Shown here in pieces: positions 1,033-47,523 of a DNA stretch of 64,000 bases. This stretch comes from Escherichia phage ECML-4, in sequence record JX128257, one strand, 5' to 3'. Position numbers and translations under genes: made by a program. The first letter of the stretch is position 1. Each line of letters opens with the position of its first letter. The notes beneath the pieces are model-generated. The model was given only the letters and a program-made list of their open reading frames with translations, made no database searches and had not been told where the DNA came from.

Positions 1033-1815
1033 CTATCGGACATATTGATAATGAGAAACCAGGCGATTCACCACTTCATCGAGGTTACGATTTAAGAAGT
1101 CAAAGTGGTTTTGGCCTTCTACATGCTTAATATAAAGCATATCCTCGCAATTCGAAAGATCCAGTTTTTCATAATTGCCCTGAGGGACGAAGATGACGAA
1201 GATGTTATTCAGGGCACACGGCTCAACATACTTCGGATTGTCGTCGATCAGGACATCGCCAGCAAGCAGATGCTTTTCATCCGTGCTCACGAACCCATTA
1301 ATCAACGATTCAAAGTGATGGTATATGAACTGACGCTTGCTGCGTTCGTGTTCCGGTTCGCATTTTGTAACTGCCACCATTTCCACTTGCTCAAACTTCT
1401 GAAGGAGAGCGGCCTTTAAATTCGTAAGGAATTCAACAGCCCCTGGCAGTGGTGACATTCTGGAATACAGATCAGGCATACGCCACCAATCCATCGGATC
1501 ACGTCCTGTTGGCGAATCCATCCACTGACCAGCAACGAATACACGGCGCGTTAACCAGGCCGGATGCGCGCGTTCACGCATGAGGATCGCCAGATCACCA
1601 GCGTGTGACATATAACACTCTTTGGTGATTGGTTGAAATTCAGATGGGTAGTCGTGACATCCCATATTTTCCGCAGCGGCTTTAGAATTAGAAATATTGA
1701 ACCATTCAACCCACGGCGATAGGGAATCAACCAGAGTCAAATCCACATCCACCAGAACGCGATATAACCCGCCAATTTTAGAACATGCGTCATACAGACC
1801 AACGTGATTATTCAT
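1033..1815 (-). CDS. HAD-superfamily phosphatase-like protein
   Basis: ORF 1033..1875 in track; preferred start at 1815 (MNNHVGLYD...) preceded by GGAG. Motif VLVDVDLTLVD matches HAD motif I (DxDxT). Confidence 0.5.
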   Translation of the reverse strand: MNNHVGLYDACSKIGGLYRVLVDVDLTLVDSLSPWVEWFNISNSKAAAENMGCHDYPSEFQPITKECYMSHAGDLAILMRERAHPAWLTRRVFVAGQWMDSPTGRDPMDWWRMPDLYSRMSPLPGAVEFLTNLKAALLQKFEQVEMVAVTKCEPEHERSKRQFIYHHFESLINGFVSTDEKHLLAGDVLIDDNPKYVEPCALNNIFVIFVPQGNYEKLDLSNCEDMLYIKHVEGQNHFDFLNRNLDEVVNRLVSHYQYVR

Positions 1816-2152
1816 CAGATTTCTCCACATTGTCATAACCCGTTGCGGTGCATTGTTCTTCAGTGCAATCGGCATACAGAACCACAGAAGATTCCTTCAC
1901 GTAAGTGGTACAGTGATAGGTTTCATCTTCCTGGATGGAATCATCATAATTGCAAACAGTTTGCAACGGACCAGGAGTGGTGTTGTCCAAAGCTGCATGT
2001 GCCTTGATGGTGTCTTCCATCTTATTCACCGCTTGCTGATTGGTGAACGTCGGCGCATCGAGGTCAACAGTAGACGCAACGTCCAGAAGGGTAGAGCATG
2101 CAGTGGTAGAGAAAGCCAGAGCACACACCAGAAGAATCTTATTGAGTTTCAT
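1808..2152 (-). CDS. small secreted protein / putative lipoprotein
   Basis: Start at 2152 (MKLNKILLVCALAFSTTACS...) with AGGT RBS; N-terminal signal-peptide-like hydrophobic segment ending in Cys. Confidence 0.45.
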   Translation of the reverse strand: MKLNKILLVCALAFSTTACSTLLDVASTVDLDAPTFTNQQAVNKMEDTIKAHAALDNTTPGPLQTVCNYDDSIQEDETYHCTTYVKESSVVLYADCTEEQCTATGYDNVEKSDE

Positions 2153-2212
2153 AACAATACCTGTTGTCAAAGGGATAACAGGGGGAATTATATCCCCCTT
2201 TGTTTTATTGAA

Positions 2213-5209
2213 TCAACCTTTCTTGCCCATCATGGACAACAGATTAACTCGACGTTTGTGAGACCAACCAACCACGTCTAGAATAGACTGAATCGGCTCT
2301 ATGAAGGTCTTTTCAAACGTGGTGTGGTAATCTACCCACTTATCCAGCCCCAACTCCGGAGGGAGGAAGTCAGGGAAGGCTATGCGGTCGTTCCCCACAG
2401 GGTTCCCAGGTTTCAGGTTAATGATTTTAACCTTATCGCCAGATTCTATCGGCGGGAGACCGAGGTCTTCATGCTTGTCTATCAGCTTGTTGTACATAAT
2501 ACAAGCCTTGGCAGCAAAGTGTGTGCCACTGATATAATTTCCGTTGCCGTCTAACCACTTCTCAATATCACTAACGCCAGAGGCTTGAGCAATATCATCC
2601 ACGGTTAATTCCATATATTCCTTCTTATAACCCGCGATCAATTCCTGAACTTCAGCCTCCGTCCCCAGCAGAACTTTCTCATAGCATTTAACCAGACGCT
2701 CACGACACCATTCCGGCGTTGTAGATTTACGCGCTTCCAGACCTTTGAATTTTATCTTTGGCTTCTCATACTTGATGCCTTCGCTATCGTATACTGCCAT
2801 GCAATACATCTTCTTGGCTCGCCATACAGCAGACGATGCGATGACCTCACGTTCCCAGACCATGCGCTGCTCAAACCCGTTCATGGTATTACACAACAAC
2901 TGCGCCCATTCACTGGTTTTTGGCTGGTAATTCTCTTTGATCCATTGGTCAATGTTATCAACGAGTTTGTGATGATCCTTTTCTTCAGGCCACAATTGCT
3001 TGACCAGACGTTCAATGCAAATGTAGTTGGAGTCAGTATCACCCGCGATAACAAAATCCTGACCAGTAGTGCCGCAAAGTTTGTTCAGATAATCATCGGT
3101 GTGGCGTTTGTTCCATTTGTTGATCAGCTGGCCGGAAGTGGTGATTGCTTCAGCGATGTTGATGTTGAAGTATTCTTTAAACCAGACGTTGGAGATTGCG
3201 CCATAACCTGCGTTCATCAAGATCTTCAGACCTTGTTGTAACGTGTCTTGAGCAACCCCCAGATCTTCCCACTTGTGCATGACTTCAGTCAGGTGATCAA
3301 GATCGATGTGCTTGTGTTCTTCATACCATTCAGGATCGTAGAAACGAGACTTCATGGCGGATTCAAGGTGGAAATCACCTTTAGACATTTCCTTACACCA
3401 ACCAGCCCATTGCTCATACTTCAGGCCAGTTGCTTTCTCTCCTTTACGGTCAGCGTATATGCCTCGCATAATTTCGGAAAGGAAGGACATCTTCTCATTA
3501 CTGAAGAACTGAACGTTCGGGGTAAACGAAACGTTATATCGGCGTAGTGTTTCAAAATGGAATTCGCCCAGCGCGACCAATTCATCAACAACTTGTATGC
3601 GTTCATCAATAGCACGCTGCAACTTGTCGTGAAGATTTTTGAGATGACGACGTTTATTCATCGGCGTTGTCATATCATTCATCGCTTTGGTCAATTCCTC
3701 ACACATGGCCTCAATAATATCACGGCGGGTGTGCTTATCAGAAACGATAGTCTCTGGACCAAGGTTGTATTGCTGTATGATGTGGGGATACAGGGAGTTT
3801 AAGTCCTCAGAGAAGACCCAGAAATATATCCCTGGTGCAACCTCCATGACATATGCGCCTTCAAAATCTGTTGGCCCATCATAGACGCGCTGGATTTTCG
3901 GGACAATCCCCTTCTCATAAAGACGATAATAACACATCGCCAGCCACGGCGCTACAGTGCCGAGACCGTCTTCATAGTTGGATTTAGTGCGATAAGCCAA
4001 TACAAACATCAGCTGTATCAAACGCAGTTTTTGTTCTAAGCGCCACACCAGCTTGACGTCTTTGATACCATATCGCGTATGCTTGCAATAATCATTGAAA
4101 TAAAGGTCATACAATGATTTGCTTTCACTATAATCCAACTTCTTCTCACCGAGTTCACAATAAGCGATCCAGTCCAGTGAGTATTTTTCACGGGTGGTGT
4201 AAGTGTGTTTCTTGTACACTTGCATGTAGTCCATCATTGGACAACCCACAAACTGATAAGACGTGACGTCGCCTTTACGGTCTTTGATGAAACGTTTCTT
4301 CAGTTTACCCCAAGGACTGAGACGTTGGGCTTCAGATTCACCAAGAACCTGCGTAATTCGTTCAACCAAATAGGGGCTATCGAACGTTTCAATGTTCCAC
4401 CCAGTCCAACCGTCAAATTGACGCTGCGACCAGTAATCCAAGAAGGCGCGAAGCAGATCTTGTTCCGTCGTATATTCTTTATATTCAACCTCAAGACCGC
4501 CGACTTCTTCATCATTGGGGTCATATTTGAATTTATGGCGATCCTTGGAACACGGCATGCCCCAGACATAGAATTTATTGGTATTCATATCTTGGAGCTG
4601 TATCAGCGTAATAGGGAACGCCGCATTCATGTTCTGTGTGATTTTACCGTTACTGTCAATTATAGGGAATTGGTCAGTCACGTTGTTGGAAATAAAGGAA
4701 CCAGGGAAATGCTCCCGAACGAAATCATGGTTGGCCAGTACTTGCTTATGGAAACGACGAACCCGCGCCTCGCTGCCTTTAAACGTGTGAGATTCAATCG
4801 TTGCGTGTGGGAATGGACCTTTAGTCATTTCTCCGTCACGCCAACCAGCCGAGAACACTTCGATATCCACGTTGGCGATGTGGATATTTGAATAATCAGG
4901 TGTGATCATCCCAGGAAAACTATGGGCGATGAATTGATATGCATAATCCGTTTGTCCATACACCGCAGCCCCTTCGACCTCCTTGTACTCCTCAAGATAG
5001 TTGTCAGCGTCGCGCATTGATGCAAACTTTTTAGACACCAACGGTTCGTTGAGGAGGCCAATCTTTTCAACTTTGGAATAATCAGCTGTGGGTAAATACA
5101 AGGTGGGTTCGAATTTCTTACGCAACATGCGGCGATTGCCGTTGTCGTCTGCGATACGAATCAGAAGGTCGTTACCCTGTCGGGCAACGTTCGTATAGAA
5201 AACAGTCAT
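2213..5209 (-). CDS. DNA polymerase, family B (T4 gp43-like)
   Basis: Motif A DLNSLYPHII and motif C VIAGDTDS present; overall collinear with remembered T4 gp43. Start chosen at ATG 5209 (MTVFYTN) preceded by GGAGACAAACA; track ORF extends to 5311. Confidence 0.93.
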   Translation of the reverse strand: MTVFYTNVARQGNDLLIRIADDNGNRRMLRKKFEPTLYLPTADYSKVEKIGLLNEPLVSKKFASMRDADNYLEEYKEVEGAAVYGQTDYAYQFIAHSFPGMITPDYSNIHIANVDIEVFSAGWRDGEMTKGPFPHATIESHTFKGSEARVRRFHKQVLANHDFVREHFPGSFISNNVTDQFPIIDSNGKITQNMNAAFPITLIQLQDMNTNKFYVWGMPCSKDRHKFKYDPNDEEVGGLEVEYKEYTTEQDLLRAFLDYWSQRQFDGWTGWNIETFDSPYLVERITQVLGESEAQRLSPWGKLKKRFIKDRKGDVTSYQFVGCPMMDYMQVYKKHTYTTREKYSLDWIAYCELGEKKLDYSESKSLYDLYFNDYCKHTRYGIKDVKLVWRLEQKLRLIQLMFVLAYRTKSNYEDGLGTVAPWLAMCYYRLYEKGIVPKIQRVYDGPTDFEGAYVMEVAPGIYFWVFSEDLNSLYPHIIQQYNLGPETIVSDKHTRRDIIEAMCEELTKAMNDMTTPMNKRRHLKNLHDKLQRAIDERIQVVDELVALGEFHFETLRRYNVSFTPNVQFFSNEKMSFLSEIMRGIYADRKGEKATGLKYEQWAGWCKEMSKGDFHLESAMKSRFYDPEWYEEHKHIDLDHLTEVMHKWEDLGVAQDTLQQGLKILMNAGYGAISNVWFKEYFNINIAEAITTSGQLINKWNKRHTDDYLNKLCGTTGQDFVIAGDTDSNYICIERLVKQLWPEEKDHHKLVDNIDQWIKENYQPKTSEWAQLLCNTMNGFEQRMVWEREVIASSAVWRAKKMYCMAVYDSEGIKYEKPKIKFKGLEARKSTTPEWCRERLVKCYEKVLLGTEAEVQELIAGYKKEYMELTVDDIAQASGVSDIEKWLDGNGNYISGTHFAAKACIMYNKLIDKHEDLGLPPIESGDKVKIINLKPGNPVGNDRIAFPDFLPPELGLDKWVDYHTTFEKTFIEPIQSILDVVGWSHKRRVNLLSMMGKKG

Positions 5210-38255: not shown

Positions 38256-38954
38256 ATGGCCAGACCATTTGAAAAATATTTCTACCATGAATCGTTGTTG
38301 AAATATATCCATGTTTTCAACGCTATCATGTCGGATTTAAAAGTCAAAACCGAACGTGGCTTGATGGAAATCCCGCTGCATATGGCTATTGGTCGCCGTA
38401 ATGACCTCAACAGGAACGTACCAGCCAATATGCTGCCATTTGCAACAATGTCCTTTGGTCAGTTCGAAATCAATAAACAGGTGACGAAGTCGTATCACAA
38501 CCAAATATCGACAGCCACGGCACGGTCCAAACAACGCATTCCGATCATTATAGATTTTGAATATAACATCAGAACGAAGAAACTGGTCGAAATGCTACAG
38601 GTGTTGGAACAAATTTATTCTGTGTTCACTCCTTCCATTGATTGTCAGATAAAAGACAACGATACGTTATCTCAAGATCAAAACGTAAAGATCATGTTGA
38701 CATCCCATACCATTTCCGATAACTGGGAAGGGGATGCCGCTGAATCACCCCATATAGATTGCACCTTTAATTTTCAATTACATGGACACATTTATGGCGA
38801 AGATTATTGGGTCGATGATGGCTCTGGCGGTGGTGATCCGAACGTTATCAAAGAGATAATTATTGAAATGTCTAATGATTTGAACATGCCATGGTCGGAA
38901 CTTCCTGAGTGGTTCCGAGTTGATAAAGACGGCATACATCATCCGGAGGATTGA
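38256..38954 (+). CDS. tail sheath completion protein (gp15-like by position)
   Basis: Position directly upstream of the terminase small subunit gene; size 232 aa. Confidence 0.55.
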   Translation: MARPFEKYFYHESLLKYIHVFNAIMSDLKVKTERGLMEIPLHMAIGRRNDLNRNVPANMLPFATMSFGQFEINKQVTKSYHNQISTATARSKQRIPIIIDFEYNIRTKKLVEMLQVLEQIYSVFTPSIDCQIKDNDTLSQDQNVKIMLTSHTISDNWEGDAAESPHIDCTFNFQLHGHIYGEDYWVDDGSGGGDPNVIKEIIIEMSNDLNMPWSELPEWFRVDKDGIHHPED

Positions 38955-39637
38955 TCATGAGCAATATGTCAGAAAGGTTACTCGCTACGCTTGATGCGGT
39001 GACCGCCCGAGACGAAGTTGGGAAGGAGGCGATGGAGGCTGTCGCCCCTCGTCCAGGTATTGACTTCGATGAAAATACAGGTGAATGGTTTGGTGAACGT
39101 CCGGAAGGGTATCAGCCGATTCCTGAACCTCCATCATTGGAAGATATCGCGTCCAAAGAATCCAAGGTTCCGGAGTTTGCGGATACTGATGCCACAACAG
39201 ATTACAAGCGGATACGCGATACAACATACGCCATGCAGGAAGCCACGATGTTCATGATGGGGCAAGCTGCTAAATTAGCTGCATCTACCGAAGCCCCAAG
39301 AGCGTTTTCCGTGTTTCGTGAATTGGGCGAACTCATGCGCGGCCTGAACAAAGACCTGATGGAAAACCAAAAAACCATCAAAGCTGTGACAGGGGATAAA
39401 GAACCGCCGACTGATGACACGACAGTGGATGTTACCACTTCACCCGACGGGACCACAACAGTATCTGTTGGGAAAAAGGCGAGATCTTCGCGCGATTTAT
39501 TGAAGACGATCGAAGATGCACGCCGCCGCGCTGAAGAAAGAGCACAAGCAAAGGCCGCACAACAACCAGAAGATGAAATCATTGATGGTGAAACAGTTGA
39601 CGTGAAGGAAGAAGACGATGGCGTATCAGAAGCGTGA
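38951..39637 (+). CDS. terminase small subunit (T4 gp16-like)
   Basis: Central region DTTYAMQEATMFMMGQAAKLAASTEAPRAFSVFRELGELMRGLNKDLMENQKTIKAV parallels the remembered T4 gp16 core; overlaps the terminase large subunit start. Confidence 0.7.
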   Translation: MIMSNMSERLLATLDAVTARDEVGKEAMEAVAPRPGIDFDENTGEWFGERPEGYQPIPEPPSLEDIASKESKVPEFADTDATTDYKRIRDTTYAMQEATMFMMGQAAKLAASTEAPRAFSVFRELGELMRGLNKDLMENQKTIKAVTGDKEPPTDDTTVDVTTSPDGTTTVSVGKKARSSRDLLKTIEDARRRAEERAQAKAAQQPEDEIIDGETVDVKEEDDGVSEA

Positions 39638-41828
39638 TATAGAATATGCCCCAATTAAAACGGGGTTCAAAATAGACGATGTGAAATTGCGTATGGACCA
39701 AACGTTCATGCGCAAACCTTCTGTGCGTGCTCCTCGAGTCGAGTTAATGCTGACAGATGAACAAGAAGACGAATTCGTTGAATGTTCTATGGATGCACAC
39801 TACTTCGCCGCCAACTATTACAAGATAACCACGATCGATAAAGGCTTTATCCTTTTCGATATGCATGATTATCAGAAACAATTGTTCCATGACTTTCAGG
39901 ACTATCGATTCAATGCGGTCGTCCAGGCTCGTCAGTCCGGTAAATGCGTCCGTGGTGATACTCTTGTTTATGTCTATGATACAATCAGTCAACAAGAGTT
40001 GCATCTCACCATAGAAGAGCTTCACAAGCGCTTCGAAGGACCGAACCATGCTGTGCCACTGAATACCATTGGCAACCACAATAAGTTTGTAGACAGCCGT
40101 TTCGGGAAACGATATTTTGTTGAGTCCGACACTGGCTGGGTTCCGGTTATTGCCGCTCATAAAACGAAAGAATACGCTGAATACGTGGTCAGGACTGAAA
40201 CCGGACGCACAATTCATGTCGCAGATGAGCACATGTTCTTCAATGAATATGGGCGCGAAGTATTTGCTAAAGACATGGAGGCTGGAGATGCCATAATGAC
40301 CCAGGAGGGAATAGAATTCATCTCTGAGATCTGGGAGACTGGTGAGTACCACCACATGTATGACTTGCAAGTCAAGTCCAGCGATCAACGTTATTACACG
40401 AATGGGTTCCTCAGCCATAATACCACGGTCGTGGCTGCGTTTCTTCTTTGGTATGCGATGTTCCACTCAGACAAAGAAATCGCGGTACTGGCAAACAAAG
40501 AGAAACAAGCGATTGAAATTCTTGACCGTATCAGGAAGGCGTATCAGGACCTCCCATTCTTCCTTCAGCAGGGTTGTGAGAAGTTTGGTTCTACACTGAT
40601 AGAGTTTGAGAACGGCTCTAAGATATATGCTTATGCAACGTCTTCGGACTCTATTCGTGGTCGTTCTGTATCTCTCTTGTACGTGGACGAAGTCGCATTC
40701 ATCGAAAATGACTTTGAATTTTGGGAATCAACATTCCCAGCGATCGCATCTGCTGATACTTCACGTTGTATTCTGACCAGTACTCCGAAAGGCCAGCGAG
40801 GGTTGTTCTATGATATCGTCACCAAAGCAGACCCGCGCCATCCGCAATACAACGACTTCCATCTTACCGAAGTCCCTTGGTACAAGGTTCCGGCGTACAC
40901 CAAAGACCCTGATTGGGAAACCAAACAACGCGCTCGTCTGGGGGATGCCCGTTTTGACCAGGAATTTGGAATCAAGTTCCGTGGTTCTGTAGGTTCATTG
41001 ATACCAGCCAAATGCTTGGATAAAATGACATCCAAGTTATATCGAGAGCCTAATGAGTTCACCAAAATTTACAAGGAATATGACCCGCAACGCATCTACT
41101 TCGGGATCGCAGATACGGGGAAAGGTGTTGAAGGAGATTATTCGGTTCTGACAATTCTGGATATAACGGAATACCCGCATGTCATAGCGGCCAAGTACAG
41201 GAACAATACAATACCTCCGATGATGTATGCATACACGATAGCTGATATGTGTACTGAATACGGGGAGTGTCCAGTCCTTGTAGAAACCAACAACGACGTT
41301 GGTGGACAGGTTATTACAATCTTGTATCAAGAAATTGAGTATCCAGAGATTATATTCACGTCGACGGATAACAAAGGGACAGGGAAACGGATTGGTGGTC
41401 GTAAACCAGAGCCAGGCATTAACACCAACAGGAAAGTGCGATCTATTGGTTGTGCTAACCTGAAAGCGCTTATTGAGAAAGAAATGTTGGTGATTGAAGA
41501 TCAAGACACGATAGATGAACTCAGCACATTCGTGTTCCGTGGTGCGCGTTATGAAGCAGATGATGGATGTCACGACGACTGCGTTATGCCGTTGGTATTA
41601 TATTCTTGGGCAGTTAAACAAGAATGGTTCAGTGATCTGACTTCTACCAGTATTTCTCAAGACATGAGAAATAGAATGTCTTCGACTGAGTCACAACAAG
41701 TATTCCCATTTGGTGGTTTAGTCGTGGGAGACACTCCATCTGGAACTGAGCATCTCCCTGGGTTCGGTGGTGTTCAAGTCTTCGACGAACGTTCAGGGAT
41801 GACAATGGACGAGTGGTTTAAGAATTGA
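39618..41828 (+). CDS. terminase large subunit (T4 gp17-like) interrupted by a mini-intein
   Basis: Walker A RQSGK|TT is split by a 159-aa insert that starts with Cys and ends with His-Asn followed by Thr; flanks are gp17-like. Confidence 0.85.
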   Translation: MAYQKRDIEYAPIKTGFKIDDVKLRMDQTFMRKPSVRAPRVELMLTDEQEDEFVECSMDAHYFAANYYKITTIDKGFILFDMHDYQKQLFHDFQDYRFNAVVQARQSGKCVRGDTLVYVYDTISQQELHLTIEELHKRFEGPNHAVPLNTIGNHNKFVDSRFGKRYFVESDTGWVPVIAAHKTKEYAEYVVRTETGRTIHVADEHMFFNEYGREVFAKDMEAGDAIMTQEGIEFISEIWETGEYHHMYDLQVKSSDQRYYTNGFLSHNTTVVAAFLLWYAMFHSDKEIAVLANKEKQAIEILDRIRKAYQDLPFFLQQGCEKFGSTLIEFENGSKIYAYATSSDSIRGRSVSLLYVDEVAFIENDFEFWESTFPAIASADTSRCILTSTPKGQRGLFYDIVTKADPRHPQYNDFHLTEVPWYKVPAYTKDPDWETKQRARLGDARFDQEFGIKFRGSVGSLIPAKCLDKMTSKLYREPNEFTKIYKEYDPQRIYFGIADTGKGVEGDYSVLTILDITEYPHVIAAKYRNNTIPPMMYAYTIADMCTEYGECPVLVETNNDVGGQVITILYQEIEYPEIIFTSTDNKGTGKRIGGRKPEPGINTNRKVRSIGCANLKALIEKEMLVIEDQDTIDELSTFVFRGARYEADDGCHDDCVMPLVLYSWAVKQEWFSDLTSTSISQDMRNRMSSTESQQVFPFGGLVVGDTPSGTEHLPGFGGVQVFDERSGMTMDEWFKN
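39945..40421 (+). mobile_element. mini-intein (Hint domain, no endonuclease domain) in terminase P-loop
   Basis: In-frame insert CVRGDTLVYV ... MYDLQVKSSDQRYYTNGFLSHN; N-terminal Cys, block F/G-like terminus with HN plus Thr at +1; splicing out restores RQSGKTTVVAA. Confidence 0.7.
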
Positions 41829-43810: not shown

Positions 43811-44534
43811 AATGATCTTTATAATAGAGAACATCGAAATGATCGGAAGTGTCTACAAAATCACAAATCTCACCAACCAGAAAGCCTATATCGGGATCAC
43901 CACACGCGACCCAATAGACAGGTGGTGGGAGCATTGCAACAACGCTCAGAACGGCTCTGATTACTTCATTCACCAGGCCATCCGTAAATACGGCGAAGAA
44001 TCATTCTCGGTTCAGGTAATCGCGCAGACCAATTCTATAGAAGACCTCAAAGAATTAGAGATCATCTTGATAAAACAGCACGGCACTCATATGTCTACAC
44101 AGAAAGGTTATAACAAGACTTGGGGTGGTGACGGCGCAACTTCTTCAGGGAAAGCGGGGGCAATAGACGTTAATACTGGTGAACGTTTAGGACTAATAGA
44201 TTGTTCAGATCCTCGTTGGGATATGGGGGAGATTATTAGTTGCAGACATGGAGTCAAACATAAAGATAATACCAGGTTGTCCAACTATGCCAAAACTCGG
44301 ACTGGCGTTAAGAACCCCAATGCCAAGAAGTTCAAACTGATTTCACCATCCGGTGAAGAACATGAGATACATGGGAATTGCAAAGAATATGTGGAAAGCC
44401 TTGGGTTGAAATATTCAGCTCTTTATGATTATATTGAGAAAGACATCCCTGTTCCTCCGCCTTCTATATTTCATAAGAAGAATGCTTCACAAGAACGATT
44501 GAACACTGTTGGGTGGAGACTCGAAAGAATATGA
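43811..44534 (+). CDS. GIY-YIG homing endonuclease (Seg-like)
   Basis: N-terminal VYKITNLTNQKAYIGIT (GIY ... YIG); start set at ATG 43811 after the hairpin following the sheath gene. Track ORF start at 43689 overlaps the sheath gene. Confidence 0.7.
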
Positions 44535-44989
44535 TATACGCATACAAAATTGAAATGGTTTGTAATGGAAAGGTCTACATCGGTGTGACCAATCACCCAC
44601 AACGAAGATATGATCAGCATTTTGCGAATGCCTTTCATCATGGAGTCCAAAGTGAATTGTATGACGCCATGCGTAAGTATGGAACATCTGGATTTACTTT
44701 CGTTGTAATTGCTCAGACCGATGAAGTCCATAAATGGGAATTAGAGAAGCAACTCATCGCTCAATATAATTCTTATGAGATGGGTTACAACATGAATAAA
44801 GGCGGTAATGATGGAAGTCATATGCTGGGTAAAACTGCAGCAAAATTGACATCCACAGGTGAACACATTGGTCTTGTTTCTCTCATAGATCCCCGTTGGG
44901 AATTGTGTGAAATCGAACCTGTTTCAAGTAATGTTCATCATGGTTTCGATCTTTCTTCTATGAAGATTAAAAGATTGACGACTAATTAG
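44531..44989 (+). CDS. GIY-YIG homing endonuclease, paralogue of the preceding gene
   Basis: IYAYKIEMVCNGKVYIGVT motif; shares TGEHIGLVSLIDPRWELCEI with upstream TGERLGLIDCSDPRWDMGEI; ATGA start/stop overlap. Confidence 0.7.
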   Translation: MIYAYKIEMVCNGKVYIGVTNHPQRRYDQHFANAFHHGVQSELYDAMRKYGTSGFTFVVIAQTDEVHKWELEKQLIAQYNSYEMGYNMNKGGNDGSHMLGKTAAKLTSTGEHIGLVSLIDPRWELCEIEPVSSNVHHGFDLSSMKIKRLTTN

Positions 44990-47344: not shown

Positions 47345-47514
47345 ATGAGCGCAATTGATATCGTTCGTGCAGTAATTGACGGTGACACTGAAACTGCTGT
47401 TGCAGAATGCAACATGGAACTTGATGCACGTAGTCAAGAACTATTGAACCAAGGCACAGCATATGTTCTGGATTCTATCGCAGCCGATATGAATTCAAAC
47501 AACAACGGCCAGTA
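47345..47514 (+). CDS. small prohead core protein (gp67-like by position, 56 aa)
   Basis: Short ORF after a CTAAATATA box; below track cutoff; position as in T4. Confidence 0.35.
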
Positions 47515-47523
47515 AGGAGATGC

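Follow-up and report, generated by a model that had tools for sequence, protein, structure and literature searches.

Terminases are common hosts of inteins, and 22 inteins have been listed in Terminase_6 proteins (Novikova et al., PMC4760082). For mycobacteriophages, it has been argued that inteins of the large terminase subunit (TerL) must splice before an active site can form; five such inteins that were put to the test, all at other insertion sites than the one described here, spliced readily (Kelley et al. 2016, mBio, PMC5050341). The same work gave the name of 'classic' P-loop intein insertion to the position that separates the P-loop Lys from its Thr; terminase inteins at Lys|Thr are an established pattern. 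The mycobacteriophage TerL1-a inteins occupy it, between the invariant Lys and a nucleophilic Thr, but in a Terminase_1 host protein, whereas mycobacteriophage Terminase_6 proteins carry an intein in the C-motif (PMC5050341). Among T4-related myoviruses, an intein interrupts the large terminase gene of Campylobacter phage vB_CcoM-IBB_35, a gene that also contains an intron with an HNH endonuclease (PMC3322345). The closest precedents are Salmonella phages Marshall and Maynard, whose genome announcements of 2013 reported a large terminase interrupted by an intein (PMC3853055, PMC3868846), and Klebsiella phage Magnus, for which the same was announced (PMC6763660).

Here we analysed a 64,000-nucleotide stretch of Escherichia phage ECML-4 (JX128257; hereafter the window), which belongs to the genus Kuttervirus, family Ackermannviridae. 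Its terL gene is 100% identical by megablast to those of Salmonella phages FSL SP-063, FSL SP-029 and Guerrero and 98% identical to those of Marshall, Maynard and Mooltan, all Kuttervirus/Ackermannviridae. The intein that it carries, together with its boundaries and class, is already known, with GenBank annotation at these residues dating from 2013: the GenBank CDS of Marshall (KF669653) reads 'intein-containing terminase large subunit; intein from Cys110 to Asn268', and its mat_peptide (1828-2304, with terL starting at 1501) corresponds base for base to 39945-40421 of the window. Mooltan (MH688040) has a mat_peptide 'intein' at identical coordinates, and an NCBI protein record, 'intein [Salmonella phage Maynard]' (genome KF669654), is 99% identical to our intein. 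All three phages hold the same element with the same boundaries, the Marshall DNA being 99.6% identical, and the window differs from them in nothing of substance; it is another isolate. The earlier note, made from the bases alone, was thus a correct call and no discovery.

In many other records the gene is labelled no more specifically than 'terminase' (as in the 100%-identical FSL SP-063, FSL SP-029 and Guerrero) or 'hypothetical protein'; annotation of Kuttervirus records could be harmonised. Unless removed, the intein makes TerL appear longer than it is and biases Ackermannviridae phylogenies built on terL.

An intein divides the Walker A motif of TerL

The terL precursor gene (39618-41828, plus strand; stop codon 41826-41828) encodes a T4-type large terminase of 736 amino acids, intein included. 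Pfam profiles place Terminase_6N on residues 269-460 (E 3e-16) and Terminase_6C on residues 498-629. The gene sits amid virion structural genes, flanked by a small terminase gene (38951-39637) and a tail sheath gene (from 41881), in the T4-like local order gp14-gp15-gp16-gp17-gp18. It is the only large-terminase gene that we saw in the window, and the only one listed in the annotations that we saw.

The intein occupies 39945-40421 (plus strand), residues Cys110 to Asn268 of the precursor. Translation of this interval gives 159 codons, CVRGDTLV...YDLQVKSSDQRYYTNGFLSHN. Upstream, the N-extein (39618-39944, residues 1-109) ends in ...VVQARQSGK, whose last six residues, A104-R-Q-S-G-K109 (39927-39944), form the first half of Walker A. 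Downstream, the C-extein (40422-41825, residues 269-736) opens with TTVVAAFLLW and contains the nuclease domain as well as what remains of the ATPase domain. Walker A in TerL thus reads ARQSGK, then Cys110 through His-Asn268, then TTVVAA. The first residue of the C-extein (Thr+1, 40422-40424) has two roles, as the predicted splice nucleophile and as the Thr of the Walker A GK-T. The earlier note had given these boundaries, with RQSGK and TTVVAA as flanks, Cys at the start, His-Asn at the end and Thr after it, and they proved exact to the base.

Within the intein, block A (39945-39974, plus strand; CVRGDTLVYV) begins with the nucleophile, Cys1 (39945-39947), and takes in the first beta-strand. 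Block B (40203-40241, plus strand) reads GRTIHVADEHMFF and includes the invariant His96 (40230-40232). Blocks F and G (40356-40421, plus strand) together read MYDLQVKSSDQRYYTNGFLSHN and supply Asp140 (block F) along with His158 and Asn159, the last two residues of the intein. The earlier note had called the penultimate block typical of Hint-domain termini, and both C-terminal blocks are indeed present, with D140, H158 and N159 invariant among relatives. Cys1 is the only cysteine of the intein. Base composition gives no sign of a recent foreign origin, GC content being 46.1% in the intein, 44.9% in the exteins and 45.3% in the window.

Sequence and fold point to a class 1 mini-intein

An HMM search for Hint blocks, one of the checks that the earlier note had proposed, gave a mixed outcome. 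The NCBIfam N-terminal intein profile (TIGR01445, intein_Nterm) scored 25.4 bits and exceeded its cut-off of 24.5, whereas Pfam Intein_splicing (PF14890; E 3.5e-8, 33.9 bits) just missed its gathering score of 35.8, and the C-terminal profile (TIGR01443, intein_Cterm) reached 11.9-13.4 against a cut-off of 15.6. GyrA, RtcB and Tes intein profiles also matched, weakly. A phmmer search against PDB sequences returned gp41-1 (6qaz, E 8e-4), the PabCDC21-1 intein, the engineered Cat intein and VidaL.

To assess the fold, we used an AF2 model of the intein built from an alignment of 19 inteins from the Lys|Thr (K|T) site (mean pLDDT 94.2, pTM 0.87). It shows one domain, all-beta apart from two short helices (residues 23-43). 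Foldseek against the PDB placed only inteins or bacterial intein-like (BIL) domains among its top 50 matches, led by VidaL (6vgv, E 2e-12); gp41-1 (6qaz) matched with a target-normalised TM-score of 0.84 and an rmsd of 2.6. The compact HINT fold, lacking an endonuclease, is thus shared with gp41-1 (6qaz, 6riz) and VidaL (6vgv), which give the best sequence match (E 8e-4) and are among the best structural ones (target-normalised TM-score 0.83-0.84). However, gp41-1 is naturally split and resides in a helicase, whereas the intein described here is contiguous, about 30 residues longer (helices 23-43) and ~19-20% identical to it.

Several kinds of intein could be told apart on these grounds. A bifunctional homing-endonuclease intein was rejected: the insert totals 159 amino acids, the HINT domain of the model accounts for every one of them, and no endonuclease family (LAGLIDADG, HNH or other) matched within it among Pfam and NCBIfam profiles, in agreement with the earlier note that there was no room for such a domain. 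A split intein was rejected as well, the precursor being a single uninterrupted 736-codon ORF. Before the terminal Asn stands His, not the Thr of a class 3 intein, and since the WCT triplet is lacking and Cys1 is the only Cys, the element falls in class 1. Cys1, the block B His, the block F Asp, the His-Asn end, Thr+1 and the HINT fold are all present, and the insertion is in frame at a conserved site where intein-free homologues are colinear. With sequence anatomy, fold and colinearity in agreement on a mini-intein inside Walker A, as first proposed, the 159-residue insert is almost certainly a canonical class 1 mini-intein, and a splicing-competent one.

The Lys|Thr site in other terminases

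We aligned the window's TerL with three intein-free TerLs (alignment A1), those of Erwinia phage Bue1 (Ackermannviridae; 78% identical), Vibrio phage D494 (57%) and the T4-type phage RB51 (gp17; 33%). The only large indel in A1 is one 159-column gap, placed exactly between K109 and T269, so that ARQSGK|TTVVAAFLLW of the window aligns with SRQLGK-TTVVAIFLAH, SRQLGK being the RB51 gp17 reading. R105, Q106, G108 and K109 are invariant before the insert, as are T269-T-V-V-A after it. In T4 gp17, Walker A is SRQLGKT. This comparison with intein-free gp17 homologues, likewise proposed at the outset, therefore found the proteins colinear and GK-TT uninterrupted. Five further TerLs (P0017-P0021) are likewise colinear, lack the intein and read RQSGK-TTVVAAFL.

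The intein-bearing relatives are numerous. The intein alone as a query gave 4 matches, whereas the full-length TerL retrieved many more terminases with a Cys-initial insertion directly after RQxGK. Inteins could be extracted from 28 of these, namely 26 mini-inteins of 150-181 amino acids, ranging in identity to the window's from 100% down to ~32%, and two larger inteins of 443-451 amino acids in metagenomic TerLs (P0084, P0112). Campylobacter phages occur among the tblastn matches of the intein; the mycobacteriophage TerL1-a inteins described above are not detectably close to it in sequence, and their host protein is of another family than the Terminase_6/T4-type protein considered here.

Conservation is concentrated on the residues expected to splice. 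In a 20-sequence alignment (A2), C1, K47, F48, G64, T74, A93, D94 and H96 are invariant in the N-terminal part, and M138, D140, T152, L156, S157, H158, N159 and T+1 in the C-terminal part. No sequence of the 19- and 20-sequence alignments departs from C1, nor does any of the 26 mini-inteins, and Thr+1 is invariant in alignments A1, A2 and A3, with Ser in its place in one further K|T intein (P0111). We estimated dN/dS (Nei-Gojobori) at 0.05-0.12 in the intein vs 0.04-0.06 in the exteins, for a limited set of pairs, as synonymous sites are saturated in pairwise comparisons across genera. Unlike a decaying insertion, the intein is conserved to a degree that fits a splicing-competent element in an essential gene.

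Two assisting positions depart from the canonical pattern. In the TxxH of block B, the His is present and the Thr is replaced by Ala93 (ADEH, AxxH) in every family member; elsewhere, the window's allele group has Gln where most other K|T inteins have His (DHRYY). The two substitutions could slow splicing. The block B change from Thr to Ala is common to the whole family, cultured viable phages included.

Distribution of the intein

Searching 50,697 phage records with a 30-residue probe for the spliced junction, we found no match at 90% identity or above, and hence no intein-free Kuttervirus. The best uninterrupted junctions belong to Erwinia phages Bue1 and phiEa2809 (86.7%) and to Vibrio phages. 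The intein itself is carried by more than 270 cultured phage isolates. Outside this set, a metagenomic TerL (P0017) lacks the intein despite an extein identity of 85%, on a 4.7-kb contig that shares the window's gp15-TerS-TerL-sheath synteny. In a rough neighbour-joining tree of the exteins, intein-free and intein-bearing lineages are interleaved. Such patchy presence would be expected if the element were mobile, with gains and losses.

Splicing and its consequences for the terminase

In the precursor, the P-loop Lys and Thr are parted by the 159-residue intein, so the unspliced protein should not bind ATP and would be ATPase-dead. More than 270 cultured isolates nevertheless bear the insert, and none is intein-free at a junction identity of at least 90%, so the precursor must yield a functional TerL. 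From this we infer that the intein splices.

Splicing would follow the standard class 1 route. In an initial N-S acyl shift, Cys1 would attack the Lys109-Cys1 peptide bond with the assistance of the block B His96. Trans-esterification, assisted by the block F Asp140, would then move the N-extein to Thr+1, and cyclisation of Asn159, assisted by His158, would release the intein. An O-N shift would finally leave a normal Lys-Thr peptide bond and restore GK-T. TerL would thus be active only once self-spliced, and we expect splicing to be constitutive and fast rather than regulated. The earlier note had drawn the same dependence of ATPase activity on splicing, which was sound reasoning with the Lys and Thr of GK[T/S] parted; its further suggestion that splicing times DNA packaging found no support.

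Such timing would make the intein a regulatory switch, in which splicing conditional on redox, temperature, nucleotide or DNA delays TerL so that packaging starts late. As the intein interrupts the active site, activity necessarily depends on splicing; however, terL lies among structural genes and is expected to be late, so transcription would already time TerL. Every enterobacterial Ackermannviridae record that we saw in the phage collection has the intein, with none lacking it at a junction identity of 90% or more, but the intein-free relatives Bue1, phiEa2809 and the 85%-identical P0017 nest among intein-bearing lineages. Likewise, the intein is under purifying selection, yet such selection on splice residues is expected of any intein in an essential gene. 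The two non-canonical assisting residues could make splicing slow or tunable; on the other hand, a single Cys allows no disulfide trap within the intein itself, and two alleles that differ by 27% in DNA (see below) appear interchangeable. Selective retention of P-loop inteins has been argued for in general (Novikova 2016, PMC4760082; Kelley 2016, PMC5050341), although the TerL inteins studied by Kelley et al. spliced readily (PMC5050341). We found no evidence of conditional splicing of the TerL intein and consider a switch improbable.

Less probable still, and in our view very unlikely, is a degenerate HINT-derived insertion that no longer splices and is tolerated as an integral domain of TerL. 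The Pfam score just below threshold would suit such a domain, as would the block B Ala for Thr and the Gln where most K|T inteins have His, and our search of the literature found no experiment on splicing of this intein. However, the insert separates GK from a T that is invariant in Walker A from this phage to T4-type gp17, and ATP binding would not be expected to tolerate a domain of 159 residues at that point. Moreover, all splicing residues are invariant among inteins down to ~32% identity, which would be unexpected if they did not splice.

The chance that the insert is no intein, and instead a 'pretoxin HINT' or BIL domain, is negligible: the record of Dickeya phage phiDP23.1 labels its homologue 'pretoxin HINT domain protein' and BIL2 structures appear among the weaker Foldseek matches (ranks 37, 40, 46 and 47), but true inteins are the best matches in both structure and sequence, the insertion falls precisely at K|T with Thr+1 invariant in A2 and A3, and BIL domains are not known to sit in conserved active-site motifs of essential enzymes or to have a conserved +1 nucleophile.

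Our preferred reading, a constitutively splicing class 1 mini-intein, would make the element a selfish or neutral passenger that moves between co-infecting relatives by homologous recombination. It would persist because a viable phage must either have a copy able to splice or have lost the intein by a base-perfect deletion. The locus also offers a compact Thr+1 mini-intein, putatively splicing, from a cultivable enterobacterial phage.

Alleles and mosaicism at the splice junction

Identities in the intein and in its host protein do not run in parallel. Between the window and PhaxI, the TerL exteins are 98% identical and the inteins 79%; between PhaxI and P0007, another TerL, the exteins are 86% identical and the inteins 97%. 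Judged from these identities, intein and extein histories disagree.

Two alleles coexist in Kuttervirus, ~27% apart in DNA, in near-identical terL backgrounds. Allele A, that of the window, recurs in 78 records at 99% DNA identity or more; CBA120, Mutine and S118 have allele B, which is ~74-75% identical to it. Against CBA120, the window diverges by 1.8% in the N-extein, 27.5% in the intein and 12.4% in the C-extein, and the jump begins at 39941-39947. Against Marshall, it diverges by 9.5% in the N-extein and by 0.4% in both intein and C-extein, the last dense mismatch lying at 39929. The comparison with bering gives 5.2%, 0.4% and 2.0%, respectively. In several independent comparisons, breakpoints thus fall within ~16 nt or less of the N-terminal splice junction (39945), which, as read from these alignments, recurs as a boundary of mosaicism. 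In allele A, the tract of low diversity continues for ~230 nt into the C-extein. This mosaicism fits allele exchange via homologous recombination in co-infection.

Low DNA diversity in the intein might also reflect a second function of the same bases. An antisense ORF (39744-40466, minus strand, 240 amino acids) was rejected as a gene on account of stop codons in Marshall, CBA120, UTK0004, IME250 and MK-13 and, not being conserved, was rejected as the cause of the low diversity too. No Rfam family was found there at gathering thresholds that could represent an RNA element with this effect; the Rfam matches were five tRNAs elsewhere in the window.

A more speculative proposal is that exchange of this endonuclease-less intein is ongoing and centred on the junction, perhaps driven by a nuclease acting in trans ('collaborative homing'). 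We regard this as possible but doubtful. Candidates for a trans-acting nuclease are the phage's free-standing GIY-YIG or HNH enzymes, with the Walker A coding sequence as the proposed target. The nearest free-standing GIY-YIG gene lies at 44513-44989.

An intein-free terL allele and the mosaic of intein-bearing genes

A contig from Logan accession ERR11172903 (locus L006, 4757 nt) carries an intein-free TerL gene at 1660-3390, a natural 'empty site' allele of terL. Its product is 85% identical to the exteins of the window's TerL, gene order at the locus is identical to that in the window, and a rough neighbour-joining tree places this TerL amid intein-bearing lineages.

Comparing window positions 39618-40650 with loci L001 and L010-L015, we observed two intein alleles coexisting in Kuttervirus at ~27% DNA divergence. 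Among six phages, allele A (the window's own intein DNA) forms a near-invariant tract together with the following ~230 nt of the C-extein, flanked by sequence that diverges by 2-10%. Between lineages, intein identities are discordant with extein identities.

The intein is also overlapped by a 240-aa antisense ORF (39744-40466, minus strand), which we rejected as a gene and consider a chance ORF because stop codons break its reading frame in Marshall, CBA120, UTK0004, IME250 and MK-13.

Large inteins and endonuclease genes

Two TerL homologues, P0084 and P0112, have inteins of 443-451 aa at the same K|T site, the Walker A position occupied by the window's intein, and these share the MYD...ILSHN|TT terminus. 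No Pfam-recognisable endonuclease domain was found in either large intein; the central part could represent a homing endonuclease that is either undescribed or strongly diverged.

Four further homologous TerL ORFs, P0086 (Vibrio phage VP-1), P0055, P0082 and P0113, have a GIY-YIG domain 3' of the ATPase part, with no Terminase_6C nuclease domain detected in these ORFs, and are probably terL genes split through insertion of a homing-endonuclease gene. The K|T intein is also present in three of the four.

Within the window, annotation of phage Guerrero, whose terL is 100% identical throughout to the window's, marks a free-standing gene for a GIY-YIG nuclease (44513-44989, plus strand), located between those for tail sheath and tail tube, and, following the portal gene, a short remnant of a GIY-YIG endonuclease (47345-47515, plus strand). 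Both are candidate mobile endonuclease genes inside the late structural gene block. Five clustered tRNA genes (Ile-GAT, Ser-GCT, Tyr-GTA, Asn-GTT and Met-CAT) lie on the minus strand at 11600-12863.
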